Under the pieces are notes generated by a model. The model searched no databases. It worked only from the letters and a program-made list of their open reading frames with translations, and was not told where the DNA came from. A stretch of DNA of 64,000 nucleotides from Candidatus Omnitrophota bacterium (GTDB taxonomy: Bacteria > Omnitrophota > Gorgyraeia > 2-01-FULL-45-10): the NCBI GenBank assembly GCA_030695905.1, contig JAUYOL010000004.1, positions 2,874 through 66,873 on the forward strand, in the 5' to 3' direction. Shown here piece by piece: positions 31,647 through 51,393 of the stretch (positions are counted from its first letter, which is position 1; each line of letters starts with the position of its first letter). Made by a program: the position numbers and the translations under genes.

Positions 31647-32092
31647 CCTGTCTGGTTTTGATAGCGTCGCTGGTTATCATAATTGACAGACTTGCCAAGT
31701 TTCTGGTATTCAACAATATGCTCGAAGGGCAGTCCGTAGAAATCTTGCCCAAGATTTTTCACATCACACTGGTGTTGAATACCGGTGCAGCCTTTGGATT
31801 ATTCAAAGACAAAAACCAATTCTTCATAGTCATGTCTTTCATCGTTGTCGCGCTTATATTTGCGTACGTATGGCTCGGCAAGCGCAAGGACCTCGTCAGC
31901 TTAAGCGCGCTGGGCCTTATTCTTGGCGGAGCGGCCGGCAACGTGATAGACCGCCTTATATTTGGCCATATTATAGATTTCCTGGATTTTCGCGTATGGC
32001 CCGTATTCAATGTGGCCGATTCATCAATAACTATTGGCGCTGTATTACTGGTTTTGAGGTTATTCTCCGGTAAAAAATGCTGTACTCAATAG
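31643..32092 (+). CDS. lspA: Lipoprotein signal peptidase II
   Basis: Has the conserved NTGAAFGLF and FNVADSSITIGAVLL motifs and 4 TM segments. Confidence 0.9.
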   Translation: MTCLVLIASLVIIIDRLAKFLVFNNMLEGQSVEILPKIFHITLVLNTGAAFGLFKDKNQFFIVMSFIVVALIFAYVWLGKRKDLVSLSALGLILGGAAGNVIDRLIFGHIIDFLDFRVWPVFNVADSSITIGAVLLVLRLFSGKKCCTQ

Positions 32093-33309
32093 GATTTTTT
32101 ATATTTTCACTGCTTTATCTGCCTACCCTTATCTTTAAGGGCAAGCTTCACGCGGATTTTGGCGAGAGGTTTGCCATATTTGATAAGATGAAGGAGAGGG
32201 CTCTGCTTTCCGGCAGGGACCGCATATGGATACAGGCGGTTAGTGTAGGCGAAGTCGCGCTTTGTAAGAGCTTTATACCGGTTTTGAAAGAAAAATTCCC
32301 GGATCGGGATATAGTCATTTCGACTATAACCAAGGCAGGGAATGACCTGGCCCGAAAAATTTTCGGCAAAGATGTTGTAATCATATATTTTCCTCTCGAT
32401 TTTAAGGCTATAGTTAGAAAAACGATAAGCCTGATTAAACCCGCTTTATATATAATGATAGAGACTGAGATATGGCCCAATCTTTTGGCGGAGCTTTCTT
32501 CGCGCGCTATATCTTCAGCGCTTATTAACGGCAGGATATCCGATCGTTCCATAGGAAAATACAGGTTCGCAAAGCCATTTTTGAAGAAGACCCTGGAAAG
32601 TATAAATATATTTTGTATGCAGGATAGCATAGATGCCGAGAGAATAATAGAATTGGGCGCGCCGAAGGAGAGGGTAAGGATAACGGGCAATATGAAATTC
32701 GATATAGAGCTTCCGGCAAATGTAAAAGATATCGAGGCGGTACGCGACCTGTTTGGGCTCAAAGCTGGCGAAGAGCTATTCGTAGCAGGGAGTACGCGCG
32801 AGGGCGAAGAAGAGATTGTTCTCGATGTATTTAATAGGCTTTTGGCCGATTTCCCGAATTTAAGGCTGCTCATAGCCCCAAGGCATATTGATAGGGCAGT
32901 CCAGATCGATAAGTTAATACAGACCCTGACCCCAGATTCTAAATCCCGGATTATATTGCTCGACACGATAGGCCATCTTAATGAGGCGTACTCTGTCGCA
33001 ACTATTGTTTTTGTAGGCGGCAGTCTTATAAAACACGGGGGGCATAATCCTATAGAGCCGGCATATTTTGCCAAGCCGATACTCTTCGGGCTTAATATGT
33101 TTAATTTTAAATATATCGCAGCCGTTTTTTTAAGGAACAAGGCCGCGCTGCAGGTTTTTAACGGTGAAGACCTTTACGAAAAATGTAAACTTCTTTTACG
33201 TGATGCCGCAGCAAGGGGCCTTTTGGGTAAAAATGCGAAGAAGACGATCGTTGAAAATGCCGGCGCGACGGGGAAAAATGTTATCGAAATCGCGGGAGTC
33301 TTGAAATGA
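32077..33309 (+). CDS. waaA: 3-deoxy-D-manno-octulosonic acid (Kdo) transferase
   Basis: N-terminal RIWIQAVSVGEV matches the Kdo transferase signature. It has a GT-B C-terminal domain and lies adjacent to lpxK. Confidence 0.88.
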   Translation: MLYSIGFFIFSLLYLPTLIFKGKLHADFGERFAIFDKMKERALLSGRDRIWIQAVSVGEVALCKSFIPVLKEKFPDRDIVISTITKAGNDLARKIFGKDVVIIYFPLDFKAIVRKTISLIKPALYIMIETEIWPNLLAELSSRAISSALINGRISDRSIGKYRFAKPFLKKTLESINIFCMQDSIDAERIIELGAPKERVRITGNMKFDIELPANVKDIEAVRDLFGLKAGEELFVAGSTREGEEEIVLDVFNRLLADFPNLRLLIAPRHIDRAVQIDKLIQTLTPDSKSRIILLDTIGHLNEAYSVATIVFVGGSLIKHGGHNPIEPAYFAKPILFGLNMFNFKYIAAVFLRNKAALQVFNGEDLYEKCKLLLRDAAARGLLGKNAKKTIVENAGATGKNVIEIAGVLK

Positions 33310-34343
33310 GGGACTTCATATATTCGTTAATGACCGATAAGAAGAATGGTTTTTTCTACGACATCTTTAAATTTAAGCTCTATCTGGTTTCGCTTATATA
33401 TGGTTTCGCTATAGCGGTCAGAAGAGTCTTTTATAAATTCGGCATATTTAAGATGCGTAAGGCGCCCCTTAAGGTTATAAGCGTCGGGAACATAACTTTA
33501 GGCGGTACGGGTAAGACGCCTTTCGTGGTGACACTGGGCCACATTTTAGAGTCGGAGCTTAAGAAGAACGCGTGTGTGCTTATACGCGGTTATGGCTGGG
33601 ACGAGCAGGCGATGCTGAAGAATAAACTCACCGATATACCGGTTCTTGTAGGCGAAGACAGGGCGCGCTCGGCTTTGAAAGCGGTTAAGCTTTATGGTTC
33701 AAATACAGCGATACTTGACGATGGATTTCAGCATTGGGAGCTTGGCCGGGATCTTGATATAGTGCTTGTCGATTCAAGGAATCCTTTCGGTAATTTGCAA
33801 TTATTTCCCAGGGGAGTATTAAGAGAGCCCAAAAAGGCTTTGCAGAGGGCTGACATTATAGTTTTTACGAAAACTGACGGAAAGAATATCAATTTGGAAA
33901 ATTTAAAGGCCGAGGCAGGCAATATAAACAGAACCGCTGTTTTTTTGGAAGCTGTTCATAAGCCGACTTATTTATATGAGAACAAAACTAGGATCACGCG
34001 CGATCTTTCTTATGTAAAGGGCAAGCGCGTTATCTTATTCTCAAGCATAGGCGATCCGTCGCATTTTGAAGAGACCGTCAGGGCCATGGGCGCGGAAGTG
34101 GTCGAGCACATAAAATTTACGGATCACCATAACTACAAGAAGAGCGACATAGAGCATATTTTAAAAAGATGCAGCGAAAGAAGTTTTGACTTCGTGCTTA
34201 CGACAGAAAAGGATATCGTGAAATTAAACAGGCTCGGGCTGTATATTGGATCCTATACAGTCATGGTTGTAGTGATAAACCTTGAAATAACGCTGGGGAA
34301 GGAGATCTTGATTGATAGACTCAATCGCCTCTATACTCGTTAG
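33306..34343 (+). CDS. lpxK: Tetraacyldisaccharide 4'-kinase
   Basis: VISVGNITLGGTGKTP is the LpxK P-loop. The gene overlaps waaA by 4 nt. Confidence 0.9.
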   Translation: MRDFIYSLMTDKKNGFFYDIFKFKLYLVSLIYGFAIAVRRVFYKFGIFKMRKAPLKVISVGNITLGGTGKTPFVVTLGHILESELKKNACVLIRGYGWDEQAMLKNKLTDIPVLVGEDRARSALKAVKLYGSNTAILDDGFQHWELGRDLDIVLVDSRNPFGNLQLFPRGVLREPKKALQRADIIVFTKTDGKNINLENLKAEAGNINRTAVFLEAVHKPTYLYENKTRITRDLSYVKGKRVILFSSIGDPSHFEETVRAMGAEVVEHIKFTDHHNYKKSDIEHILKRCSERSFDFVLTTEKDIVKLNRLGLYIGSYTVMVVVINLEITLGKEILIDRLNRLYTR

Positions 34344-36255
34344 AGGGCTGAATATCATATTTCATTTTATTCCAATAGAGTTCAACCTTTGGATAGGCAG
34401 GCGTATAGGTTCCGCTGCCTTCTTTATTAATAAGAAAAGGCGCATGATAGCCTACGCCAATCTTAAGGCAGCGTTCGCGAACGAGAAGCCCCCGAAAGAG
34501 TTGCGTGCGATCACTAAAAGAGTTTATATAAACCTCGTCCAAAGCTTTGCCGAGATCTTAAGCCTTACCAAGGTAAGTAAATCCTATGTGAATAAATATG
34601 TTGAAGTTGTAAATATGAACCGTATAGAGGACGCCGGGAAATCAGGCAGGGGCACCATACTTCTCACGGCTCACTACGGCGACTGGGAACTGTCGAGCCT
34701 GGTAAGCGCTATGAAGGGTTTTCCTATAACGGTCCTTGCCCGCGAGCAGAAGATGAAACGGCTTAATGAACTTTTAAACCGCCTCAGAGAGTCGAAGGGA
34801 TGTAAGGTTGTAAGGAAGGGGATGTCCACAAAGCTTATCTTCAAAGAACTTTATAAGAAGGATATGGTAGGGATATTGTCGGATCAGGATGCCGGCAAGA
34901 ACGGTACTTTTGTAAACTTTTTTGGCAGGCCAACATCGGCGCATGTCGGGCCTTTTGAAATAGCCAAGCATACGGATTCTATAATATTACCCAATTTTAT
35001 CGTAAGGACGGCCGGTCCATTTCATAAATTATACCTGGAAGATTACATAGATATGAGGGATGCCAAAACTCAGGAAGATGTGAAGGATAGTCTGCAGAAA
35101 TATATGTCTTTGCTGGAAAAGTACATCAGGCAGTATCCTGATCAGTGGTTATGGCTTCACAAGAGGTGGAAATCCACCCCAAAAAGGACCATCCTTGTTT
35201 TAAATGACGGCAAGGCGGGCCATCTGAACCAATCGCTTGCGGTAGCGCGCGAGATACAGAGGGCGAGGATGACCCAGGGATACAAAATAGAGGATACTTC
35301 AATAGTTACGGTGAGTGTTGAGTATAAAAACAAATTATTAAGACTTCTATTGGCATGTATTGTGCCCTTTGCAAGTTGGCGCTGTCAGGGCCGCATGTAT
35401 TGCTTGAGGATGTGCCTGAAGAAAGATTCTTACGAAAATTTAATGAAGACATACGCGGAATTTATAGTCTCCTGCGGTTCGAGCTTAGCTCCCGTGAATG
35501 TATTTATGAAAAAGGAAAACAACGCCAGGAATGTTGTAATTATGAAGCCGTGCCTTTTATTCGGTTTAAGAAAGTTTAATTTTATAATCGCGCCCAAACA
35601 TGACAGAATATGTGAACGTAAAAATGTTGTTATTACGACTTTAGCGCCCAATCTGGTGGACAGCCAGGCGCTGAAAGCCGCGGGAGAGAAATTGTCGGCC
35701 GGTGTGCGACTTGAAGGCAACAAGGTTATGGGGCTTCTGATAGGCGGCGATAATCCGGAGTTCAGGCTTTCGGGAGATTTATTAAAAAAAGTCATAAACG
35801 ATGTGCTCAAAGTTTGCGAATCGAATAACGCGGATCTGCTGGTAACGACTTCCAGGCGCACAAATAAAGAGCAGGAGTCGATTATAAAATCTATGTTACA
35901 GGGTAACTCCAGATGTAAACTGCTTGTAATAGCGAATGAGAGCAATCCAGAAGAGACGCTGACAGGCATACTGGCCTTAAGTAACGTCGCTATCGTTTCG
36001 GGCGAATCAATATCAATGATTTCCGAGGCGGTGAGTTCAGGTAAAAAGACAGTAGCTTTTGGCCTTAAGAAGAAGAAAAATTCTATTACAAAACACGAAC
36101 GTGTTCTCGAAAATCTGGCAAGAGATGGGTACATATCAATAGCCAGGGCCGGAGAGATGATATCGCTGGCCTCAAGAGCGCTAAAAGACACGTCGCCCGC
36201 GAAAAAGGTCGGAGATACGGACAAAATTTACGAAGCCATGAGGGCGCTCATATAA
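34312..36255 (+). CDS. Two-domain protein: N-terminal LpxL/HtrB-family lipid A acyltransferase fused to a C-terminal ELM1/GtrOC1-like putative glycosyltransferase domain (647 aa)
   Basis: Residues 1-290 have the lysophospholipid-acyltransferase HX4D-type motif (LTAHYGDWEL) and the LpxL fold. Residues 300-647 resemble the ELM1/DUF1022 family (KAGHLNQSLAVA ... LLIGGDNPEF ... VIANESNPEE). The C-terminal domain assignment is recalled and unverified. Confidence 0.65.
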   Translation: MIDSIASILVRGLNIIFHFIPIEFNLWIGRRIGSAAFFINKKRRMIAYANLKAAFANEKPPKELRAITKRVYINLVQSFAEILSLTKVSKSYVNKYVEVVNMNRIEDAGKSGRGTILLTAHYGDWELSSLVSAMKGFPITVLAREQKMKRLNELLNRLRESKGCKVVRKGMSTKLIFKELYKKDMVGILSDQDAGKNGTFVNFFGRPTSAHVGPFEIAKHTDSIILPNFIVRTAGPFHKLYLEDYIDMRDAKTQEDVKDSLQKYMSLLEKYIRQYPDQWLWLHKRWKSTPKRTILVLNDGKAGHLNQSLAVAREIQRARMTQGYKIEDTSIVTVSVEYKNKLLRLLLACIVPFASWRCQGRMYCLRMCLKKDSYENLMKTYAEFIVSCGSSLAPVNVFMKKENNARNVVIMKPCLLFGLRKFNFIIAPKHDRICERKNVVITTLAPNLVDSQALKAAGEKLSAGVRLEGNKVMGLLIGGDNPEFRLSGDLLKKVINDVLKVCESNNADLLVTTSRRTNKEQESIIKSMLQGNSRCKLLVIANESNPEETLTGILALSNVAIVSGESISMISEAVSSGKKTVAFGLKKKKNSITKHERVLENLARDGYISIARAGEMISLASRALKDTSPAKKVGDTDKIYEAMRALI

Positions 36256-36270
36256 AATTTTTCTCATGCT

Positions 36271-36471
36271 GCACGGCGGACCTTGCGGGATTCCACCTTC
36301 AGCGGACATAAATTTGGATTGGGCATCCAAATTTACTCGGAAAATTTTTGATGGCCGTCTAACCTGGCAACTATTATACAATTGCCCAGTTTGTCCGGCC
36401 GTTCTGGATCGCCAAAAGGAATCAAAATTTTTGACGCCGCTTCAGGCGGAATCCCGCAAGGTCCGCCTGTG
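36271..36471. repeat. GC-rich 201-nt structured element bounded by 35-nt imperfect inverted repeats (20-bp perfect core GGCGGACCTTGCGGGATTCC), with internal hairpins. Candidate ncRNA or MITE-like element.
   Basis: The left arm (36271-36305) pairs with the right arm (36437-36471). An internal hairpin AAATTTGGAT-tgggc-ATCCAAATTT lies at 36311-36334. Further complementarity includes TGGCAA/TTGCC and GGCCG/CGGCC. The only ORFs here are two mirror-image artefacts. Confidence 0.55.
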
Positions 36472-36803: not shown

Positions 36804-38906
36804 ATGAACATATTACAGATATTACCATCACTGGAAGTTGGCGGGGTCGAGACCGGGACGATTGATCTGGCGAGGTACCTTGTAAAGAAATGCCACAAGG
36901 TGATCGTCATTTCGGGAGGCGGCCGGCTTGTAAGAGAGCTCGATAAGATGGGCGCGCGCCACTATACGTTACCGGTAGGGAAGAAGTCTATTTTTAATAT
37001 GATACGCATGGTTCGCGCGGTGGCCGATATCATAAAAAATGAAGATATCGATATCGTACATGTGCGCTCGCGCGTGCCGGCGCTTATAGCGTTTATAGCT
37101 TCCAGAATGACCAATCGTGTATTTATGACTACCGCTCATGGTTACTACAAAAAAAGTTTTATGAGTAGCGTAATGGGTTGGGGCAGATTCGTGATAGTGC
37201 CATCCAATATAATAGCTAAGCATATGGTAAGCGATTTTGGCGTGCCCCATGATCGCATACGTTTTATTCCCCGCGGCGTGGATCTGACAAGATTCAAATT
37301 CAGGAATCCTAAGACGCATTCCTCAAAGGGTTTTACCGTGGGGATGATATCAAGAATAACGCCTTTAAAAGGCCATGCCTATTTTATAAAAGCGATATCT
37401 CTTTTATATCGAAAGATCCCCAATCTTAAAGTTGTAATAGTAGGCAGCGCCCCAAAAGAAAAATACAAAGAGGACCTGGATCTGTTAGTAAGAAGGCTCG
37501 GCCTTGCAAATATTGTGCAGTTTGTGGGCGCCAAAGAAGATATCCCATCTGTAATGAAAGACCTGGATTGTCTTGTATCCGCTACAATCACCCCGGAAGC
37601 GTTCGGCAGGTCCATTGTGGAGGCACAGGCGTCCGGTGTACCGGTGGTTTCGACCAGAGTGGGCGGCGTTGTCGATATCATAGAGGATAATAAAACGGGC
37701 CTATTCTGTGACGCGCAGGACCCGCGCGATATGGCCGATAAGATATCGAGGCTTTACCAGGACAGAGCCTTATGGGAAGAGTTTGTGATCCAGGGCAGAA
37801 AGCGCGTGGAGGATAATTTTAATCTCGATCTTATGATGACCAAGACTATTAGCGTATATGAAGAAGCCTTGAAAAGTTTAAATATTCTGGTGATAAAATT
37901 AAGCGCGATAGGCGATGTTATATTAAGCACGCCTTCGCTTCGTTCAATACGCGCAAAACACAAGGACTCTGTGATAAAGGTTCTCGTTGGGCTCCAGGCC
38001 AAAGAAGTGTTGGATAGATGCCCGTATATAAATGACAGGATAATATGTGACTTTAAGGGCAAGAATAAAGGCTTTATTGGGCTATGGAGGTTGTCAGAGG
38101 AATTAAGGAAGGGCTGTTTTGATATAGTAATAGATCTGCAGAATAATAAAAAGAGCCACATACTTTCATTTTTGTCTATGGCGCCGCTTCGCTACGGTTA
38201 CGACAACGGAAAATTTTCTTTTCTATTGAACAAGAGGATAAAGGATGACGCGCCGTATCTGGATCCTATAGACCATCAGTTCAGGGTATTAAAGCTCGCG
38301 GGTATAAAACCTCTGGATAAACATCTGGAGATATGGCCTTCGCCTTCCGACGATGAAAAGGTAAGCGGTTTGCTCAATGAGAGCTGGATCAAATCAACGC
38401 AAAATATAGTAGGTATAAACGTGAGAGCCTCTTCGCGCTGGCTTTCTAAGAATTGGCCGGCTAAGTATATAGCCGAACTTTGTGACAGGCTCGCGAAAGA
38501 ATTCAACGTGCGCACAGTGCTTACAGGGACTAAGGATGATATCCCTTTCATAGAAAGGATAAGCCAGAACACTTCCTCGAAACCTATAGTGGCCGCAGGT
38601 AAGACAGGCATGCTTGAATTGGCGAGCCTTATAAAAAGATGCCGGGCTTATATAACGCCCGATTCCGCGCCTATGCACATCGCCTCGGCCGTAGGCACCC
38701 CATTTATAGGCTTGTTCGGCCCTACGGATCCGGCAAGGCATATAGCGCCATCAAAAAAATACGTAGTAATGAAGAAGGATCTAAAGTGCAGCCCATGCTA
38801 TAACCCGAACTGTTTGAAAAAAGTTAAATGCATGAAAGAGATAACGGTCGACGAGGTTTTTAAAGCTACCAAGGATATCTTAACCCAGAATGGCGCCGGA
38901 CAATGA
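36804..38906 (+). CDS. Bifunctional glycosyltransferase: N-terminal GT4 (GT-B, EX7E motif) fused to a C-terminal GT9 heptosyltransferase-like domain (700 aa)
   Basis: The N-terminal half has EAFGRSIVEAQASGVPVVSTRVGGVVDIIE, a GT4 EX7E region. The C-terminal half has ILVIKLSAIGDVILSTP and DSAPMHIASAVGTPFIGLFGPTDP, the GT9/WaaC-WaaF-WaaQ signatures. Confidence 0.8.
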   Translation: MNILQILPSLEVGGVETGTIDLARYLVKKCHKVIVISGGGRLVRELDKMGARHYTLPVGKKSIFNMIRMVRAVADIIKNEDIDIVHVRSRVPALIAFIASRMTNRVFMTTAHGYYKKSFMSSVMGWGRFVIVPSNIIAKHMVSDFGVPHDRIRFIPRGVDLTRFKFRNPKTHSSKGFTVGMISRITPLKGHAYFIKAISLLYRKIPNLKVVIVGSAPKEKYKEDLDLLVRRLGLANIVQFVGAKEDIPSVMKDLDCLVSATITPEAFGRSIVEAQASGVPVVSTRVGGVVDIIEDNKTGLFCDAQDPRDMADKISRLYQDRALWEEFVIQGRKRVEDNFNLDLMMTKTISVYEEALKSLNILVIKLSAIGDVILSTPSLRSIRAKHKDSVIKVLVGLQAKEVLDRCPYINDRIICDFKGKNKGFIGLWRLSEELRKGCFDIVIDLQNNKKSHILSFLSMAPLRYGYDNGKFSFLLNKRIKDDAPYLDPIDHQFRVLKLAGIKPLDKHLEIWPSPSDDEKVSGLLNESWIKSTQNIVGINVRASSRWLSKNWPAKYIAELCDRLAKEFNVRTVLTGTKDDIPFIERISQNTSSKPIVAAGKTGMLELASLIKRCRAYITPDSAPMHIASAVGTPFIGLFGPTDPARHIAPSKKYVVMKKDLKCSPCYNPNCLKKVKCMKEITVDEVFKATKDILTQNGAGQ

Positions 38907-40012
38907 AAGTACTGCATGTAAATACGCACATGAATATAGGCGGTATCGGCCGGTATATACTTTCATTGTGCAATGCGATGAAGAAGATGGGGATAGATTG
39001 TTCCGTTGCCTCAAGCGGAGGCAACCTGGAAGATGAGTTAAAAGAAAACGGTATAAAGCATAAGTACATAGGTATAAAGACAAAATTTGAATTTGGCCCG
39101 AAAGTTTTTAGCGCGGTATCGCCTTTAGCTAATATAATTATGGAGGAAGGCGTAAATTTGGTCCATGCGCACACAAGGGTTTCGCAAGTTGTCTCTTTCC
39201 TGGCATCACGTAAAGCAGAGGCTCATTATGTATCGACGTGCCATGGTTTTTTTAAACCCAAATTATCGAGAAAACTGTTTGATACATGGGGAGAGAGAGT
39301 AGTCGCGATAAGTGAGCCTGTAAAGGCCCATCTGGAAAGAGATTTTGGTATAAATTCAGAACGCATAGGGCTTATACATAACGGAGTCGATATGGATAAA
39401 TTCTCGAAAAATTTTTCGAACGACGAAATATCCAAACTAAAAAGATCAATAACGCTTAAAGAAGGCCCTGTAGTGGGGACTATTGGCAGGCTCTCCTCTG
39501 TTAAAGGCCAGAAATTTCTTATTGAGGCGATGAAGAACGTGATTTCTAAAAATAATCTGGCGCAATGTCTTATCATAGGTGAGGGGCCGGAAGAAGATGA
39601 ATTGAAAAAGTTGGCCGTTGATTTGGGCATAGAAAATAACGTAAAATTCGCGGGCCCTATCTATAAAGACGCTAATATGTATCTTGCATGCATGGATGTA
39701 TTTGTGCTGCCTTCGATAAAAGAGGGGCTGGGCCTTGCGCTGCTCGAGGCGATGGCCGCCGCAAGACCGTGCGTAGCATCAGATATAGGCGGAATAAGGG
39801 ATATAGTTAAGGACAGGGATAATGGCATGCTCGTCCCTGTGGCCGATATCAGCGCGATGGCAGATTCTATATCGAAACTTTTGAGTGATAAGGCCGCCGC
39901 GATGCGGCTTGGGCAAAATGGAAGAGAGTTTGTGAAAGAAAATTTCTCAATTACCGTTATGGCTGAAAAGATGAGCAGGCTCTACAGGGAGGTAGTAAGT
40001 GGCAAACAGTAA
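38903..40012 (+). CDS. GT4-family glycosyltransferase (369 aa)
   Basis: GT-B fold with an EX7E region (EGLGLALLEAMAAARPCVASDIGGIRDIV). It overlaps the upstream gene as ATGA. Confidence 0.8.
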   Translation: MKVLHVNTHMNIGGIGRYILSLCNAMKKMGIDCSVASSGGNLEDELKENGIKHKYIGIKTKFEFGPKVFSAVSPLANIIMEEGVNLVHAHTRVSQVVSFLASRKAEAHYVSTCHGFFKPKLSRKLFDTWGERVVAISEPVKAHLERDFGINSERIGLIHNGVDMDKFSKNFSNDEISKLKRSITLKEGPVVGTIGRLSSVKGQKFLIEAMKNVISKNNLAQCLIIGEGPEEDELKKLAVDLGIENNVKFAGPIYKDANMYLACMDVFVLPSIKEGLGLALLEAMAAARPCVASDIGGIRDIVKDRDNGMLVPVADISAMADSISKLLSDKAAAMRLGQNGREFVKENFSITVMAEKMSRLYREVVSGKQ

Positions 40013-43881: not shown

Positions 43882-44826
43882 ATGTATTTAATGCAAAAGA
43901 GAGTAGACCTATCCAAAATAAGGACCATACGCCTTGATACTCGCAAGTGCAAGGTGTCCGTGAAGGACTTTGCGCACCTTGTAAAAAAGGGGTCGAGTTT
44001 TAAAGATTTTTACAATTCATTGCCCGCTATTCTCGCCGCCAATAATTTTAAAACTGTAGTAGACGATATCATTGCCGCCCACAAAAAGAAGAAGATGGTT
44101 ATATTTATGATGGGCGCGCATGTAATAAAGTGCGGCCTGTCGCCGTTGGTCATAGACCTGATGAAGCGTGGTGTTGTAAGAGCAGTCGCGTTAAATGGAG
44201 CCGGCATAATACATGATACCGAGGTCGCTATGATAGGCAGGACGAGCGAAGATGTCGGTGAGGGCATAGTTGACGGCTCGTTCGGCATGGCGGAAGATAC
44301 AGCTTCGTTTATCAACGGCTCGATAAACTATGGGTTTAGAAACGGCGTTGGTATAGGAGAGGCCCTTGGCAGCCGAATATTGAAGTCAAAATTTTCGTGC
44401 AAAGGTTTAAGCATTTTGGCGGAAGGTTACAGATTAGGCATACCGGTAACGGCTCATGTAGCGATAGGAACAGACATAATACACCAGCATCCCAGTGCGG
44501 TAGGGATGGCTATAGGAGAGGGGTCGCTTCTTGACTTCAAAAACTTTATCTACAGCGTTTCAAAGCTTGATGGAGGCGTGGCCGCCAATATCGGTTCGGC
44601 CGTGATTTTACCCGAAGTATTCTTAAAAGCGGTAACAGTCGCCAGAAATTTAGGATACAAGGTAGATAAATTTACGACGGCAAGTTTTGATATGATTAGC
44701 CAGTACAGGGTGCATCAGAATGTCATATCCAGGCCGACATCAAAGGGCGGCAAAGGGTACAGCATTATAGGGCATCATGAAATAATGATTCCGCTGCTTC
44801 ACAGATCGATAATAGAAAAGATATAA
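43882..44826 (+). CDS. Deoxyhypusine synthase-like family protein (314 aa), function unknown in this context
   Basis: [42 protein letters not shown] aligns by eye with eukaryotic DHS [55 protein letters not shown] resembles HNIPVFSPALTDG. The similarity is recalled and unverified. Confidence 0.4.
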   Translation: [314 protein letters not shown]

Positions 44827-45859: not shown

Positions 45860-46606
45860 GTGAAAGCTATAGGGGTAATACCCGCAAGATGGGGTTCCAC
45901 AAGATTTGAAGGTAAGGTACTGGCGGATCTTCTGGGTAAGCCGGTGATACAGCATGTTTGGGAGAGCGCGAAAAAGGCGAAGACGCTGGACGACCTTGTT
46001 GTTGCGTGTGATGATGAGCGCATAATGAAGGTTGTGCAGGAGTTCGGCGGGAAAGCGGTCTATACGTCCGTCGACCAGCCGTCCGGCACCGACCGGCTCG
46101 CGGAAGTAGTGAACCCTCTGGACGTGAAGATAGCGGTAAATATACAGGGCGATGAGCCGCTTGTTAAGCCCATCATGATAGATAATCTCGTGATGGCTCT
46201 TGAAGATGAGAAGACCGCGCAGATGGCGACTATGGTAAAGAAGATAGAAGACGAAGAAGAGCTTACGAATTCAAATGTGGTAAAGGCTATCTTTGATAAG
46301 AATGGATACGCGATATATTTTTCGCGTTACGCTATACCGTATAATAGGACAAACAGCGTCGATAAAGATAAGAAGCCGGTATATTATAAACATATAGGCA
46401 TGTACGCGTTTACCAAGGACTTTTTATTCACATTCAGAAATCTGCCTAAATCATCTCTCGAAAACGCGGAAAAACTTGAACAGCTGCGCGTGCTGGAGTA
46501 TGGTTACAAGATAAAGATAGTTGAAACGAAGTTCGATACAATCGGTGTTGATACGCATGAAGATCTGTTGAGAGTAAAAGAGATGATGTTGTCTGAAAGA
46601 TACTAA
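45860..46606 (+). CDS. kdsB: 3-deoxy-manno-octulosonate cytidylyltransferase (CMP-Kdo synthetase)
   Basis: IGVIPARWGSTRFEGK is the nucleotidyltransferase motif. The length is as expected for KdsB. Confidence 0.9.
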   Translation: MKAIGVIPARWGSTRFEGKVLADLLGKPVIQHVWESAKKAKTLDDLVVACDDERIMKVVQEFGGKAVYTSVDQPSGTDRLAEVVNPLDVKIAVNIQGDEPLVKPIMIDNLVMALEDEKTAQMATMVKKIEDEEELTNSNVVKAIFDKNGYAIYFSRYAIPYNRTNSVDKDKKPVYYKHIGMYAFTKDFLFTFRNLPKSSLENAEKLEQLRVLEYGYKIKIVETKFDTIGVDTHEDLLRVKEMMLSERY

Positions 46607-46618
46607 AGGTAAAATATA

Positions 46619-47443
46619 ATGCAGTCTACCAAAGAGATAAAGATAGGCAATGTAAAGATAGGGGCGGGTAATCCGCTTGTCCTTATCGCGGGGCCATGTG
46701 TTATAGAATCCGAATCAAGCGCCGTAAGGCACGCGAAGGCGTTAAAAGATGTAACGAGGCGGCTTGGAGTGCCTTTTATATTCAAATCAAGTTACGATAA
46801 AGCGAATAGATCCTCCGTGAATTCATTCAGGGGCCCCGGACTTAAGAAGGGATTGAAGATACTGCATAAGATAAAAGAGGAATTGGCCCTACCCATCCTT
46901 TCCGATGTACACTGCAAGGAAGAGGTTAGGGAAGCTTCAAAGGTGCTGGACGTAATCCAGATACCGGCTTTTCTCTCAAGACAGACGGATCTGATATTGG
47001 CGGCGGCCAATACAGGCAAAGTAGTCAATATAAAGAAGGGGCAGTTCTTAGCGCCCTGGGACATGCGCAATGTAGTTAAGAAGATAGAGTCGAGCGGAAA
47101 CAAAAAGATAATTCTTACCGAAAGGGGAGTAAGCTTCGGTTATAATAATCTTGTAAGTGATTTCAGGTCTGTGCTGATAATGAAAGAGATGGGTTATCCG
47201 GTTGTATACGACGCGACTCACTCTGTCCAGATGCCGGGGGGGTTAGGGGATAAATCCGGCGGTGAAAGCAAATTCATACCATATCTATCGATGGCCGCGG
47301 TTGCCTGCGGTGTCGATGGTATCTTTATAGAGGTACACGAAAATCCTTCAAAGTCATTGAGTGACGGTCCCAATATGGTAAAGCTCTCCGAGCTTGAAAA
47401 AATACTGATGAAGTTAAAGAAGATAGAAAGGGCGGCAAGATAA
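46619..47443 (+). CDS. kdsA: 2-dehydro-3-deoxyphosphooctonate aldolase (Kdo-8-P synthase)
   Basis: Has LIAGPCVIES of the DAHP/KDO8P synthase family. The gene is 274 aa. Confidence 0.9.
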   Translation: MQSTKEIKIGNVKIGAGNPLVLIAGPCVIESESSAVRHAKALKDVTRRLGVPFIFKSSYDKANRSSVNSFRGPGLKKGLKILHKIKEELALPILSDVHCKEEVREASKVLDVIQIPAFLSRQTDLILAAANTGKVVNIKKGQFLAPWDMRNVVKKIESSGNKKIILTERGVSFGYNNLVSDFRSVLIMKEMGYPVVYDATHSVQMPGGLGDKSGGESKFIPYLSMAAVACGVDGIFIEVHENPSKSLSDGPNMVKLSELEKILMKLKKIERAAR

Positions 47444-48402
47444 TGGCTAAAAGAATAGCCAAAAATGTCCTTACGATAGAACGCGACGCTTTATCTGATC
47501 TGATAAAGAGGATAGACTCCGGTTTTGAAAAGGCTGTAAACGCCTTGTATAAAACAAAAGGGCGCGTGATAGTCACGGGAATGGGCAAGCCCGGTTTTAT
47601 CGCGCAGAAGATATCGGCAACACTCTCTTCTACCGGCACACCTTCGCTGTATCTGCATCCGGCAGAAGCGTTGCACGGCGACTTAGGTAGAGTGACGAAG
47701 GAAGATATTATACTGGCGCTTTCAAATAGCGGCGAGACGGATGAAATAATCAAATTTTTACCTATTGTGAAGAAGATAGGCGCGAAATTGATCGCTATGG
47801 TCGGAAATACAAAATCCACACTCGCGAAGAACGCGGATTATATTATAAATACCTCGGTAAAGAGAGAGGCGTGTTCGTTAGGACTGGCTCCCACAACATC
47901 GACCACAGCAATGCTCGCCATGGGAGACGCTCTTGCGGTAGCCCTGCTTGATAAAAAAGGTTTTAAGGAGAATGATTTTGCTTTCTTTCACCCGGGAGGG
48001 ATACTGGGCAAGAGGTTATTGTTAAGCGTAGGCGATATCATGAGGAAGGGCAGCGATAACCCTATAGTTAACGAGAATTGCCCTGTCAAAAGAGTTTTGC
48101 TTGCTATAACAAAGGCACGCGCGGGAAGCGCAAGCGTGGTTGATTTTAAGGGTAAGCTGATCGGAATATTTACCGACGGTGACTTAAGAAGGCACATAGA
48201 AGGCCAACCCGATCTTATTAATAAAAAAGTCAGGGACGTCATGACTAAAAATCCGGTAACTATAAGCAAAGACAGGCTGGCGGCGGAAGCCTTTGATATA
48301 CTCCGATCAAAAAAGATAGACGAAATTCCGGTTGTCGATAACAAAAAGCGGCCTGTTGGATTGTTAGATGTGCAGGATCTGCTTAAAGCAGGGCTCGTAT
48401 GA
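47443..48402 (+). CDS. kdsD: Arabinose-5-phosphate isomerase (SIS domain plus tandem CBS)
   Basis: Has the SIS motif (VIVTGMGKPGFIAQKISATLSSTG) and two C-terminal CBS domains. Confidence 0.88.
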   Translation: MAKRIAKNVLTIERDALSDLIKRIDSGFEKAVNALYKTKGRVIVTGMGKPGFIAQKISATLSSTGTPSLYLHPAEALHGDLGRVTKEDIILALSNSGETDEIIKFLPIVKKIGAKLIAMVGNTKSTLAKNADYIINTSVKREACSLGLAPTTSTTAMLAMGDALAVALLDKKGFKENDFAFFHPGGILGKRLLLSVGDIMRKGSDNPIVNENCPVKRVLLAITKARAGSASVVDFKGKLIGIFTDGDLRRHIEGQPDLINKKVRDVMTKNPVTISKDRLAAEAFDILRSKKIDEIPVVDNKKRPVGLLDVQDLLKAGLV

Positions 48403-48929
48403 TAAGTAAAGAGATCGTGGAAAAAGCGAAGCGCGTGAAGATGCTTATCAGCGACATAGACGGTGTTATGACCGACGGCCGTATAGTATACAGCATTTAC
48501 GGCGATGAACTGAAATTTTTTGATGTCACAGACGGTTTCGGTATGTCGCTTTTGAACAGGGCCGGCATAAAGACCGTCATAATGACCGCGAAAAAATCCA
48601 GGATAGTGAAGATGCGCGGCCGCGATTTAAAGGTGGCAAGAGTGTATGCCGGGTTCCTGGATAAGATGATACCTTTTAACGACCTATTAAAAAGATTCAA
48701 GATTAATCCCGAAGAGATATGTTTTATAGGGGATGACCTAATAGACCTTCCGGTATTGAAGAGGGTGGGCTTTGCCGTATCTGTGCCAAACGCTATGGAA
48801 GAGGTAAAAGTAGCCGCGCACTACGTTACCTCAAAATCAGGCGGACGCGGCGCTGTGCGCGAAGTCTGCAATCTTATCTTAAAGAGCCAGGACAAGTGGG
48901 ACCAGGCCACAGCCAAATACTTCAAGTAG
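48399..48929 (+). CDS. kdsC: Kdo-8-phosphate phosphatase (HAD-IIIA)
   Basis: Has LISDIDGVMTDGRIVY (HAD motif I), together with FIGDDLIDLP. Confidence 0.88.
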   Translation: MISKEIVEKAKRVKMLISDIDGVMTDGRIVYSIYGDELKFFDVTDGFGMSLLNRAGIKTVIMTAKKSRIVKMRGRDLKVARVYAGFLDKMIPFNDLLKRFKINPEEICFIGDDLIDLPVLKRVGFAVSVPNAMEEVKVAAHYVTSKSGGRGAVREVCNLILKSQDKWDQATAKYFK

Positions 48930-48980: not shown

Positions 48981-49874
48981 ATGAAATATAAGTATAGGAG
49001 GTATTATCTATATTACCTCGGAAGGGTTGCCGCGTTTTTAGTATATTTACTGCCTATGAGCGTCAGTTCGGCGATTGCCGCTTTTTTCGGCAGATGCGCG
49101 TTTTTCCTTCTTCCCAAATATAGAGATATAGCCATAGATAACCTTACTCACGCTTTTGGCGCGGAAAAGACACCGCGCCAGATTAAGGATATCGCGATTA
49201 AGGTATTTGAAAATCTCGGCAGAAACGCCGCCGAGCTTATCAATTTTCCGAAGATAAAAGAAGATAATATAGACCGCTTTGTTAGCGTAGAAGGCCTTGA
49301 TACTGTAGACGGATCTTTCGCAAGAGGTAAGGGTACCATAATACTGGCATCCCACTTCGGTAATTGGGAGCTTTTGGGGCTGACATTCCGCGTTAAAGGC
49401 TATCCGGGCTCTACCATAGGCCGGAAGATATATTTTTATAAATACGACAACTGGCTTAATAACCTGCGAAGGGCGCGGGATATCAATGTCATCTACCGTG
49501 ATGAGTCGCCAAGGAAGATGCTAAGGGTGCTGAAGGATAACAAGATACTTGGCATAGTCGCGGACCAGGATGTTGATTCGGTCGAAGGCGTATTCGTGAA
49601 TTTTTTCGGGAGGCCCGCTTATACACCAGTGGGTCCGGCGGTGTTGGCTCAAGCTACAGGAGCCAGCCTGATACCGACTTTTGTGATCCGCGAAGGCAAT
49701 CGTCACCGTTTTGTTGTAGAAAAACCGGTAGAATTGATAAATACCGGAAATAAAGAGGCGGATATAGTAACGAATACTCAAAAATGGTCGGATGTTGTAG
49801 AATCGTACATAAGACGCTACCCGGAACAGTGGGTATGGGTGCATAAACGCTGGAAGACCAAAAAAGAAAGTTAA
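48981..49874 (+). CDS. Lipid A biosynthesis lauroyl/myristoyl acyltransferase (LpxL/LpxM family), stand-alone paralog
   Basis: Has the HX4D-type motif (ASHFGNWEL), an N-terminal TM, and QWVWVHKRWK near the C-terminus, as in LpxL. Confidence 0.8.
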   Translation: MKYKYRRYYLYYLGRVAAFLVYLLPMSVSSAIAAFFGRCAFFLLPKYRDIAIDNLTHAFGAEKTPRQIKDIAIKVFENLGRNAAELINFPKIKEDNIDRFVSVEGLDTVDGSFARGKGTIILASHFGNWELLGLTFRVKGYPGSTIGRKIYFYKYDNWLNNLRRARDINVIYRDESPRKMLRVLKDNKILGIVADQDVDSVEGVFVNFFGRPAYTPVGPAVLAQATGASLIPTFVIREGNRHRFVVEKPVELINTGNKEADIVTNTQKWSDVVESYIRRYPEQWVWVHKRWKTKKES

Positions 49875-49875
49875 A

Positions 49876-50667
49876 ATGAAAAAATATTTATTATTAGGAT
49901 TGCTTATAACGGCCTTTATATCCACCGGCTGCGGCAAGAAAGAACCGCCCAGGGTGGAAGACGCCGCGTCTTCGAGCGATACTCAAGAGGCAAGCTCTTC
50001 CGGAGCGAAAAAAGACGGTGTAGAGCATAAGGTGCTTTCTTTTAACCTCGAAGGCCTTACCGACAAGGGAGAAAAGAAGTGGGAGGTTATAGGCAGGACA
50101 GCCCGCTCCATATCAGAAAATGAGATAAGGCTGGGCGATATTATCGCTAAGACATATGGCGATCAGGAAGCTGTTATAACCGCGGATCAGGGTGTATACG
50201 ATAAATCGAAGAATAATGTCAGGCTTGAAAAGAATGTAAAGGCGACTATAGAGAATGCCGGTTCGGTAATGAAAGATCAGATAGGTTTTCCGATAGATAC
50301 TGTCGCTTCAGAAAAAAAAGATCTTCCAGGTAACAGGAAGAAGATAGTGATTACCTGTGACGGAGAGGTGGAATTCGATTATGCAAAGAACCTGGCGTAT
50401 TTCAGGAAGAACGTAAAAGTAAGAAGTGAAGACGGTGACATAGACGCGGACAGGATAACCGTTAATCTGGATCCGAAGACGAAGAAGATAAACGATATAG
50501 TTGCTGATGGGCGGGTAAAGATCACGCAGAAAGAGAATGTGGCCTACAGCGACAACGCTAAATATAGCGAAGCGGATAAGAAAGTTCTATTGAGCGGAAG
50601 CCCCAAGATAGAGATGGCTCAAGACACCGGTGATAGTTTTGTAAAAGACAGATTCCCAGAGAGGTAA
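49876..50667 (+). CDS. LptC/LptA (OstA-like fold) LPS-transport protein, predicted lipoprotein (lipobox ISTGC)
   Basis: Has a lipoprotein signal peptide and an OstA-like beta-jellyroll segment (ITADQGVYDKSKNNVRLEKNVKA). It lies immediately upstream of lptB. Confidence 0.6.
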   Translation: MKKYLLLGLLITAFISTGCGKKEPPRVEDAASSSDTQEASSSGAKKDGVEHKVLSFNLEGLTDKGEKKWEVIGRTARSISENEIRLGDIIAKTYGDQEAVITADQGVYDKSKNNVRLEKNVKATIENAGSVMKDQIGFPIDTVASEKKDLPGNRKKIVITCDGEVEFDYAKNLAYFRKNVKVRSEDGDIDADRITVNLDPKTKKINDIVADGRVKITQKENVAYSDNAKYSEADKKVLLSGSPKIEMAQDTGDSFVKDRFPER

Positions 50668-50670
50668 AAT

Positions 50671-51393
50671 ATGCATCTATTAGAAACGACCGGTTTGGTA
50701 AAGGTGTATGGTAAAAGGTGCGTCGTTGATTCTGTAGATATAAATGTCAAGAGGGGCGAAGTTGTTGGGTTGCTCGGCCCAAACGGCGCCGGCAAAACTA
50801 CCACATTTTATATGATAACCGGCCTGATACAACCTGACCGGGGCAGAATAATATTTGACAGGCAGGATATTACCGGTACGCCGATGCATATACGCGCGCG
50901 TTCCGGGATAGGGTATCTATCCCAGGAGCCGTCCATATTCAGAAAACTGACCGTTGAAGAAAATATCATGGCCGTTTTAGAGACGCTCGATTTTTCTCCC
51001 CGCGAAAGAAAAAGAAGATGTGATGAGTTATTGGGTGAGCTTAAAATAAGCCACTTGAGGAAGAACATGGCATATACGCTTTCGGGCGGAGAGAAGAGGC
51101 GTGTTGAGATAACGAGGGCGCTGGTAACGAATCCTATGTTTATTCTTCTGGACGAACCTTTTAGCGGCATAGACCCGATAGCCGTGGGCGAGTGCCAGGA
51201 GATAATAAAAGAGTTGCGCGACAAAGGGTTGGGCATACTCTTAACCGACCACAATGTGAGAGAGACGCTCACGATATGCGACAGGTCGTACTTAATGGCA
51301 GATGGAAGGATATTGATTTCAGGGCCAAAGGAAGATCTAATATCAAATCCCAGGGCCAGAGAGATATACTTAGGCGAAAAATTTACGATGTAA
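50671..51393 (+). CDS. lptB: LPS export ABC transporter ATP-binding protein LptB
   Basis: Has Walker A (GLLGPNGAGKTT), signature (LSGGEKRR) and Walker B (ILLDEPFSGID) motifs. The gene is 240 aa. Confidence 0.88.
   Translation: MHLLETTGLVKVYGKRCVVDSVDINVKRGEVVGLLGPNGAGKTTTFYMITGLIQPDRGRIIFDRQDITGTPMHIRARSGIGYLSQEPSIFRKLTVEENIMAVLETLDFSPRERKRRCDELLGELKISHLRKNMAYTLSGGEKRRVEITRALVTNPMFILLDEPFSGIDPIAVGECQEIIKELRDKGLGILLTDHNVRETLTICDRSYLMADGRILISGPKEDLISNPRAREIYLGEKFTM

Follow-up and report, generated by a model that had tools for sequence, protein, structure and literature searches.

We examined a 64,000-nucleotide (nt) stretch of DNA from a Candidatus Omnitrophota bacterium (GenBank assembly GCA_030695905.1, contig JAUYOL010000004.1, positions 2,874 to 66,873 of the forward strand), hereafter the window. 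In it we found a gene, here called lpxL-ELM1, that joins in a single chain a late lipid A acyltransferase domain of the LpxL/LpxM type and an ELM1/GtrOC1-like domain of the GT-B glycosyltransferase fold (Table 1). LpxL-ELM1 is a phylum-wide Omnitrophota architecture with a partner-swapped sister form, in which the lipid A 4'-kinase LpxK takes the place of the acyltransferase. We consider it probable, at roughly 0.6, that the fusion is a bifunctional, inner-membrane-associated enzyme of lipopolysaccharide (LPS) synthesis that would couple late acylation to the first extension of the core beyond Kdo2, the pair of 3-deoxy-D-manno-oct-2-ulosonic acid (Kdo) residues.

A first-pass annotation, made from the letters of the window, had claimed a fusion of an LpxL/HtrB acyltransferase with an ELM1/GtrOC1 domain, and hidden Markov model searches, alignments and structure prediction bore this out. 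The Pfam profile PF03279 (Lip_A_acyltrans) matched amino acids (aa) 9-287 of the protein (E 3.9e-50, 171.2 bits against a cut-off of 22.3), and PF06258 (Mito_fiss_Elm1) matched aa 302-627 (E 1.9e-48, 165.6 bits against a cut-off of 27), which confirmed the assignment of the C-terminal half on which the claim hinged. No stop codon interrupts the frame across nt 35150-35250. The junction HKRWKSTPKR/TILVLNDGKAGH (aa 283-304, nt 35158-35223) contains neither a stop nor a linker, and it is gap-free and conserved in 22 homologues at 59-83% identity (alignment A1). The full-length AlphaFold2 (AF2) model of the fusion reached a predicted local distance difference test (pLDDT) score of 91.5 and a predicted template modelling (pTM) score of 0.86. 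At its 5' end the gene shares 32 nt with lpxK, whose stop lies at 34343, and this overlap is kept in related loci.

The long open reading frame (ORF) had also raised the suspicion of an assembly or frameshift artefact merging two genes. The odd-looking architecture was the sole starting point of this suspicion, and nothing was found for it. At least 73 species-level genomes (73 of the 80 compared) keep the merged frame, as do hundreds of metagenomic clusters produced by many assemblers, and the linker-free conserved junction and its high-confidence AF2 model likewise speak against a merger. We therefore rejected this explanation as next to impossible. NCBI holds an identical 647-aa protein from an Omnitrophota metagenome-assembled genome (MAG), and each of the 120 top clusters at 90% identity contained both domains in about 647 aa. 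The automated name at NCBI is 'ELM1/GtrOC1 family putative glycosyltransferase', while close relatives at JGI are called 'KDO2-lipid IV(A) lauroyltransferase'; the name from each pipeline covers one half of the fusion only. Both domains belong to known families, databases already contain the proteins under partial, automatically assigned names, and the fusion is not a new kind of system. In the searchable literature we found no description of the architecture and nothing relevant on Omnitrophota lpx genes or LpxL fusion architectures.

To assess distribution, we performed an exhaustive HMMER search with the ELM1 domain, which returned 2151 representatives at 50% identity (E<=1e-3); the best 150 were examined. 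Ninety-one of these were 600-720 aa long and carried the ELM1 domain at about aa 300-650, 89 being LpxL-type (H-x4-E) and 2 LpxK-type, and all named members among these long representatives were Omnitrophota. We also scanned one genome per GTDB species with a 7-sequence alignment (A3), which gave 475 confirmed relatives. The best 80 loci were all from Omnitrophota MAGs, some of them labelled 'uncultured Planctomycetia' in third-party assemblies; LpxL-ELM1 was encoded in 73 of the 80 and LpxK-ELM1 in the other 7. The architecture had been described as unusual, which holds for Proteobacteria, where it is rare (one Methylophaga plasmid protein and one near-identical cluster), but not for Omnitrophota, where it is standard.

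The seven LpxK-ELM1 proteins (loci L045, L033, L035, L036, L039, L048 and L051) are about 711-747 aa long, with a linker of about 10-25 aa. An example is L045:4930-7065 on the complete 1.55-Mb chromosome CP070837.1, in which PF02606 covers aa 28-343 and PF06258 aa 364-688; two more such proteins, P0128 and P0153, were present among the 50%-identity representatives. When ELM1 domains were placed in a neighbour-joining tree, the seven formed a single clade inside the LpxL-ELM1 diversity. This clade shares with the window the ELM1 domain, the downstream GT4-GT9 gene (glycosyltransferase families 4 and 9) and the upstream waaA, but its fusion partner is the 4'-kinase instead of an acyltransferase, and the lpxL part is missing at that position. 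Because the usual gene order is lpxK followed by lpxL-ELM1, an in-frame loss of lpxL would yield exactly LpxK-ELM1, and the observations are consistent with such an origin. The swap of partner in one clade suggests that tethering or proximity matters more than coupling to acylation per se.

In the acyltransferase half, the first-pass annotation had read an HX4D motif within LTAHYGDWEL. The alignments corrected this reading: the real pattern is H121-x4-E126 (HX4E), and D124 is not the dyad partner. No variation was seen at H121, G123, W125, E126 and D191 among 58 fused homologues, the most distant at 30% identity (alignment A4), and the H-x4-E motif occurs in 89 of the 91 long representatives (88 with H-x-x-x-W-E, one with HEGSFE). 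HYGDWE of the fusion aligns with HFGTWE of Acinetobacter baumannii LpxM, which this half also matches by sequence (5KN7, E 3.6e-15), and fold comparison revealed an LpxM/PatA-like fold. From the known LpxL/LpxM enzymes (A. baumannii LpxM, PDB 5KN7/5KNK; E. coli LpxL) the fusion differs by its 355-aa C-terminal GT-B domain. The surrounding waaA, lpxK, kds and lpt genes speak for lipid A as the substrate of this half. It would be an LpxL/LpxM-type enzyme for late acylation of lipid A, with acyl transfer to Kdo2-lipid IVA as its predicted reaction.

The N-terminal transmembrane segment that had been proposed for the protein turned out to be a marginal hydrophobic segment only, with a Kyte-Doolittle maximum of 1.65 over aa 4-22; the segment contains the charged residues R11 and E23, and the full-length model shows three N-terminal helices. 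The second, stand-alone LpxL paralogue pointed out earlier in the window is real. It carries the motif HFGNWE and shares 33% identity with the fused domain (E 7e-63).

PF06258 was the sole Pfam family matched by the ELM1 half, even at E<=10. Bacterial PF06258 proteins have been described as having 'no known function in bacteria' (PMC10327509). No member of the family has a solved structure, and a phmmer search of the domain against PDB sequences gave no match; the model of this half (pLDDT 95.7, pTM 0.90) has the GT-B (double Rossmann) fold. We compared 70 ELM1 domains (alignment A2) and the 58 fused homologues of A4. Across these 58-70 sequences, D299, G303, H304, Q307, S387, G389, P428, H430, D431, G478, G479, S514, R515, R516, S566, S568, M569 and E572 are invariant or nearly so. 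About 20 invariant polar and glycine residues are common to GtrOC1, which argues for a conserved ligand-binding or catalytic site, and the segment T512-T-S-R-R-T517 in the C-terminal Rossmann half is likely to bind a phosphate or nucleotide. A separate, stand-alone ELM1 paralogue of 369 aa was observed in an Omnitrophota MAG (L001:8001-9110, GCA_030698625.1). It has SLRT in place of SRRT and lies in a non-LPS context of radical SAM, ResB-like and two-component genes.

The closest functional precedent, and the only experimental study of a bacterial PF06258 protein, comes from A. baumannii, where deletion of either A1S_2903 (= gtrOC1) or lpsB leaves Kdo2 only (VanOtterloo et al. 2024, PMC10936431). 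Co-expression of 2903, LpsB and gna adds a third Kdo and N-acetylglucosaminuronic acid (GlcNAcA) to Kdo2-lipid A, in A. baumannii as well as in E. coli WBB06, and neither 2903 nor LpsB works alone; 2903 has no transmembrane segment or signal sequence (PMC10936431). We retrieved gtrOC1 from the A. baumannii outer core (OC) locus (ilvE...aspS; L089) and compared it with the Omnitrophota domain. GtrOC1 aligned with the domain profile in hhalign (99.7%, E 2.9e-25, 247 columns), and tblastn linked the ELM1 domain and GtrOC1 at E 2.5e-16. All motifs have counterparts in GtrOC1 (SDGKAGHRSQ, PEHD, GG, TTSRRTP, which is identical, and EDSVSMVFEA), so that the two share DGKxGH, PxHD, GG, TTSRRTP and (E/D)SxSMxxEA.

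A likely counterpart of LpsB, the only partner enzyme known for this domain, was found in the next gene of the window. The best window match of A. baumannii lpsB (L096) was the GT4 domain at 36804-37874, with 31% identity over the full length (E 5.6e-51), and the reverse search with this domain over the 7.3 Gb of PLSDB returned, at E<=1e-35, only LpsB (4 records) and an LpsB-like gene of Methylophaga. As judged by sequence, the GT4 domain is therefore the reciprocal best match of LpsB, and two neighbouring genes of the window encode putative counterparts of 2903 and LpsB, each of them joined in one chain to a further LPS enzyme. The partnership of the ELM1 domain with an LpsB-type GT4 is thus seen at the genomic level only. 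In A. baumannii CP035931.1 (L096:3806-6107), the gene directly 5' of lpsB, in the same orientation, encodes a lauroyl acyltransferase.

Both systems lie in LPS core/lipid A gene contexts, but they differ in how their parts are joined. LpxL, GtrOC1 and LpsB are separate proteins in A. baumannii, with gtrOC1 placed elsewhere in the genome, in the OC locus, whereas in the window ELM1 is fused to LpxL; likewise, the LpsB-like domain of the window is fused to a heptosyltransferase while A. baumannii LpsB is unfused, and the identities are just 24-31%. To our knowledge, the lipooligosaccharide of A. baumannii contains no heptose.

The gene order in the window is lspA, waaA, lpxK, the fusion gene, GT4-GT9, a second GT4 gene, a polysaccharide deacetylase gene and three GT9 genes, followed by a PfkB kinase gene, kdsB, kdsA, kdsD, kdsC, the stand-alone LpxL gene, an LptC/LptA-like gene and an ABC-transporter ATPase gene. 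Comparison of the loci revealed a conserved operon, waaA - lpxK - [lpxL-ELM1] - [GT4-GT9]. The lpxK gene adjoins the fusion gene in 59/59 loci, with waaA upstream of lpxK in 55 of the 59. The GT4-GT9 gene is itself a second conserved LPS fusion: it forms a single ORF at most 700 nt 3' of the ELM1 gene in all 62 loci with enough downstream DNA, and its GT9 half passed the cut-off of TIGR02195 (heptosyltransferase II; 155 bits against 134.6). In L007 the four-gene module stands alone amid unrelated genes. The 479-kb contig of L003 carries a stand-alone ELM1 gene, and here too GT4-GT9, GT4 and three GT9 genes come next.

A fusion of the same two families was also found outside the phylum. When PLSDB was searched by tblastn with the LpxL domain, the matches included WP_226069883.1, a 674-aa protein of the Methylophaga pinxianii plasmid pWTT2411, in which PF03279 covers aa 11-296 and PF06258 aa 374-660. 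The domain order and the LpsB-type GT4 gene that comes next are as in the window, but the domains are separated by a linker of about 70 aa, whereas the window protein has none. The identity to the window protein is 23-25%, and of its relatives just one cluster, near-identical to it, was found to have both domains. The gene 3' of it encodes a protein 46% identical to LpsB (E 1e-101) and is followed by GT4, GT9 and O-antigen ligase genes. In the tree, the Methylophaga ELM1 domain branched outside all Omnitrophota ELM1 domains, and the Methylophaga fusion is most likely independent of the Omnitrophota one. A late acyltransferase, an ELM1-like protein and an LpsB-type GT4 are thus linked in three lineages in three different ways. 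The ELM1-LpsB pairing is not universal across the family, because the GT4 gene beside a stand-alone ELM1 gene in Roseomonas does not resemble LpsB; in Microbulbifer, GT2 and pyruvyltransferase genes are the neighbours of the ELM1 gene.

Other fusions of these families were also observed. LpxL relatives in gammaproteobacterial MAGs (P0287-P0400) are very often fused to other LPS enzymes: WaaA+LpxL proteins of about 730 aa form dozens of clusters, and LpxL+GT9, LpxL+GT2, LpxL+EptA-like sulfatase and LpxL+GNAT proteins occur, together with several 520-620-aa forms that carry unannotated extensions. LpxL is covalently joined to a lipid A or core enzyme in these proteins, as in the window, but the partner domains differ; apart from the near-identical Methylophaga cluster, none of the listed gammaproteobacterial LpxL fusions contained PF06258. 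This recurrence indicates that LpxL is a repeated fusion partner of lipid A and core enzymes. On the Pseudomonas sp. JS425 plasmid pPNP1 (L092:4639-6978), a 780-aa 'ELM1/GtrOC1' protein has no Pfam match in its first 440 aa and lies near lptG, metallophosphoesterase and Asp/Asn beta-hydroxylase (LpxO-like) genes.

The analysis established directly that the fusion exists and is conserved, and it established the folds of the two domains, the synteny of the operon and the homologies with GtrOC1 and LpsB; from these we infer the catalytic activities, the donor sugars and the tethering or channelling of the scheme that follows. LpxK and WaaA would make Kdo2-lipid IVA, to which the N-terminal domain of the fusion would add a secondary acyl chain through its H121/E126 dyad. 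The C-terminal GT-B domain and the LpsB-like GT4 of the next protein would act on the same Kdo2-lipid A molecule and add the first residues beyond Kdo2, which by analogy with A. baumannii may be a third Kdo and a second sugar. The attached GT9 domain may then add heptose. The CMP-Kdo genes of the same cluster would provide a supply for the added Kdo.

Fusion to LpxL or LpxK would place the ELM1 domain where its substrate is made and fix a 1:1 ratio of the two. A tether may be needed because GtrOC1 has no membrane anchor while the substrate is a membrane lipid, and the LpxK-ELM1 clade favours this idea, as there the partner changed and ELM1 still remained attached to a lipid A enzyme. Taken together, the phylum-wide LpxL/LpxK fusion, the adjacent LpsB-type GT4, the seemingly independent Methylophaga fusion and the lpxL-lpsB adjacency in A. 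baumannii argue that the ELM1-like domain would act at the membrane on Kdo2-lipid A, coordinated with LpsB and with late acylation.

Several points weigh against a bifunctional enzyme of this kind. In vitro catalysis has been shown for no PF06258 member, and the authors of the A. baumannii study, while preferring two cooperating transferases, leave room for a helper role of 2903; the choice between transferase and helper was left undecided there, as was complex formation by 2903 (PMC10936431). The identity between the ELM1 domain and GtrOC1 is only about 24-25%, and about 45 aa of the Omnitrophota domain (at about aa 330-375) are an insertion relative to GtrOC1. The sugars named for Omnitrophota are guesses by analogy. 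On the acyltransferase side, all 17 of 17 NCBIfam matches to LpxL, LpxM and LpxP equivalogs stayed under their cut-offs (the best at 168.5 against 248), and a comparison with the two A. baumannii paralogues did not discriminate LpxL from LpxM (E 6e-16 against 6e-15). Therefore the fused domain, in contrast to characterised LpxL/LpxM enzymes, is assigned neither to LpxL or LpxM nor to an acyl chain and acylation position.

We weighed three other functions for the ELM1-like domain. It could be a non-catalytic adaptor that recruits or activates the LpsB-type GT4 (and GT9) at the membrane, with the GT4 doing the chemistry. The family is named after the plant adaptor ELM1, which recruits dynamin-related protein, and what stays constant across lineages is that the domain is tied, physically or genetically, to a GT4 gene and to lipid A enzymes bound to the membrane; moreover, the A. 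baumannii study could not separate 2903 from LpsB and names an assistive role (PMC10936431). However, E. coli WBB06 gained two sugars from 2903, LpsB and Gna only, so two transferase activities are needed (PMC10936431), and the 20 or so Asp, His, Arg, Ser, Glu and Gly residues that stay invariant down to 30% identity and recur in GtrOC1 are typical of an active or ligand site and not of a docking surface. We consider the adaptor unlikely.

A sugar-nucleotide-modifying enzyme, resembling a 2-epimerase or hydrolase and preparing the donor for the neighbouring GT4, is a quite unlikely alternative. Neither the profile nor the signature of PF02350 (UDP-GlcNAc 2-epimerase) was found in the domain, even at E<=10, and the identity to epimerases is 10-12%. 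A G-x-G-H N-terminal loop occurs in inverting GT-B transferases (GT1/GT28), and the loop of the domain is of this kind. With a soluble substrate, fusion to membrane-bound lipid A enzymes would also have little point, and the E. coli reconstitution requires a second transferase (PMC10936431). It is very improbable that the domain stands in for LpxB, the lipid A disaccharide synthase, in Omnitrophota, although this would explain the fusion to LpxK and LpxL. The GT-B fold is shared with LpxB, and LpxK, to which one clade fuses ELM1, is the next enzyme after LpxB in the pathway. Searches with E. coli LpxA, LpxB and LpxD by tblastn gave no match in the window or in about 1 Mb of loci, but the DNA searched consisted of operon neighbourhoods only; a profile match to PF02684 (LpxB, GT19) was not found in the domain. 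We prefer a membrane-associated enzyme that would join late acylation to core extension.

Table 1. Positions in the window of the lpxL-ELM1 gene, its domains and motifs, and neighbouring LPS genes
Feature	Position (nt)	Strand	Evidence or remark
waaA (Kdo transferase), first gene of the conserved module	32077..33309	+	PF04413, E 3.7e-56
lpxK (lipid A 4'-kinase)	33306..34343	+	PF02606, E 6.6e-73
Shine-Dalgarno-like AGGAG	34300-34304	+	7 nt 5' of the TTG start, within the lpxK 3' end; read from sequence
Fused gene lpxL-ELM1	34312..36255	+	one uninterrupted ORF, 647 aa, TTG start, stop included
LpxL/LpxM-type late acyltransferase domain (aa 1-292)	34312..35187	+	
Catalytic motif H121-Y-G-D-W-E126 (HX4E dyad)	34672..34689	+	conservation
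Domain junction HKRWKSTPKRT	35158..35190	+	no linker; gap-free and conserved in A1; pLDDT about 91-96 over aa 271-300
ELM1/GtrOC1-like GT-B domain (aa 293-647)	35188..36252	+	
Loop D299-G-K-A-G-H304 after the first beta strand, then Q307	35206..35223	+	D299, G303, H304, Q307 invariant in 70 sequences (A2)
Motif P428-K-H430-D431	35593..35604	+	A2: H430, D431 invariant, P428 at least 90%; A4: all three invariant
Motif T512-T-S-R-R-T517, C-terminal Rossmann half	35845..35862	+	A4: S514, R515, R516 invariant; A2: S514, R516 invariant, R515 nearly
Motif G-E-S-I-S-M-I-S-E-A (S566, S568, M569, E572)	36001..36030	+	A4: all four invariant; A2: S566, M569 invariant, S568, E572 nearly
GT4-GT9 fusion (700 aa): LpsB-like GT4 (36804-37874) and heptosyltransferase II-like	36804..38906	+	Pfam GT4 and PF01075
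Second GT4 glycosyltransferase (369 aa)	38903..40012	+	Pfam; weaker LpsB match, E 5.6e-19
kdsB, kdsA, kdsD, kdsC-like (CMP-Kdo supply)	45860..48929	+	Pfam CTP_transf_3, DAHP_synth_1, SIS+CBS, HAD
Stand-alone LpxL/LpxM paralogue (297 aa)	48981..49874	+	NCBIfam LpxL-type models, all under curated cut-offs

Further features were observed around the operon. In GCA_016206925.1 (L006:5678-8032), waaA and lpxK are fused into a 784-aa protein (PF04413 and PF02606) directly 5' of LpxL-ELM1, a third fusion type within the same operon. The spacer from the fusion gene to GT4-GT9 is 549 nt long in the window, while that of most relatives is 0-100 nt. It holds an inverted repeat with 31-nt arms (36275-36305 and 36437-36467) that are 90% complementary and 131 nt apart. 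The repeat is unique in the window and was not found in the 94 loci searched, and Rfam gave no family match on the 549-nt spacer, only sub-threshold chance matches. Further downstream, the ORF at 43882-44826, between the GT9 and PfkB kinase genes of the LPS core cluster, encodes 314 aa without a Pfam match at E<=1e-3. The 263-aa protein encoded at 49876-50667 has an LptC match over aa 43-128 (alone under the Pfam cut-off) and an LptA/LptD_N OstA fold over aa 165-250, and it may be an LptC-LptA fusion; the ABC-transporter ATPase gene after it (50671-51393) is presumably lptB.

All function-assigned ORFs of the window (1-64000) lie on the plus strand; the listed minus-strand ORFs are nested within them and presumably spurious. 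The GC skew is positive in every 2-kb bin (0.12-0.23). The window is consistent with a long co-oriented leading-strand stretch that comprises a dcw cluster, the LPS cluster and isoprenoid genes. Extension of the contig downstream of the window gave uppS-cdsA-dxr-rseP-ispG-proS-efp-rimP-nusA only.

The fusion is a useful, not a radical, clue to how the LPS inner core is built, and it offers a first sketch of inner-core assembly in Omnitrophota, a phylum known mostly from MAGs. By comparison, it strengthens and generalises the 2024 A. baumannii result (PMC10936431), and it supplies natural single-chain constructs for biochemical and structural work on the inner-core step. Only tentatively do we suggest that tandem transfer by '2903 + LpsB', presented in 2024 as peculiar to A. 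baumannii, is an ancient cross-phylum module that extends Kdo2-lipid A, and that Omnitrophota may have hard-wired the late Raetz and inner-core pathways into a membrane-bound assembly line. If this is true, WaaA (sometimes fused to LpxK), LpxL-ELM1 or LpxK-ELM1, and LpsB-WaaF would pass the substrate between active sites, and the fusions would serve as Rosetta-stone evidence for physical complexes of ELM1-like proteins with late lipid A enzymes in bacteria at large.

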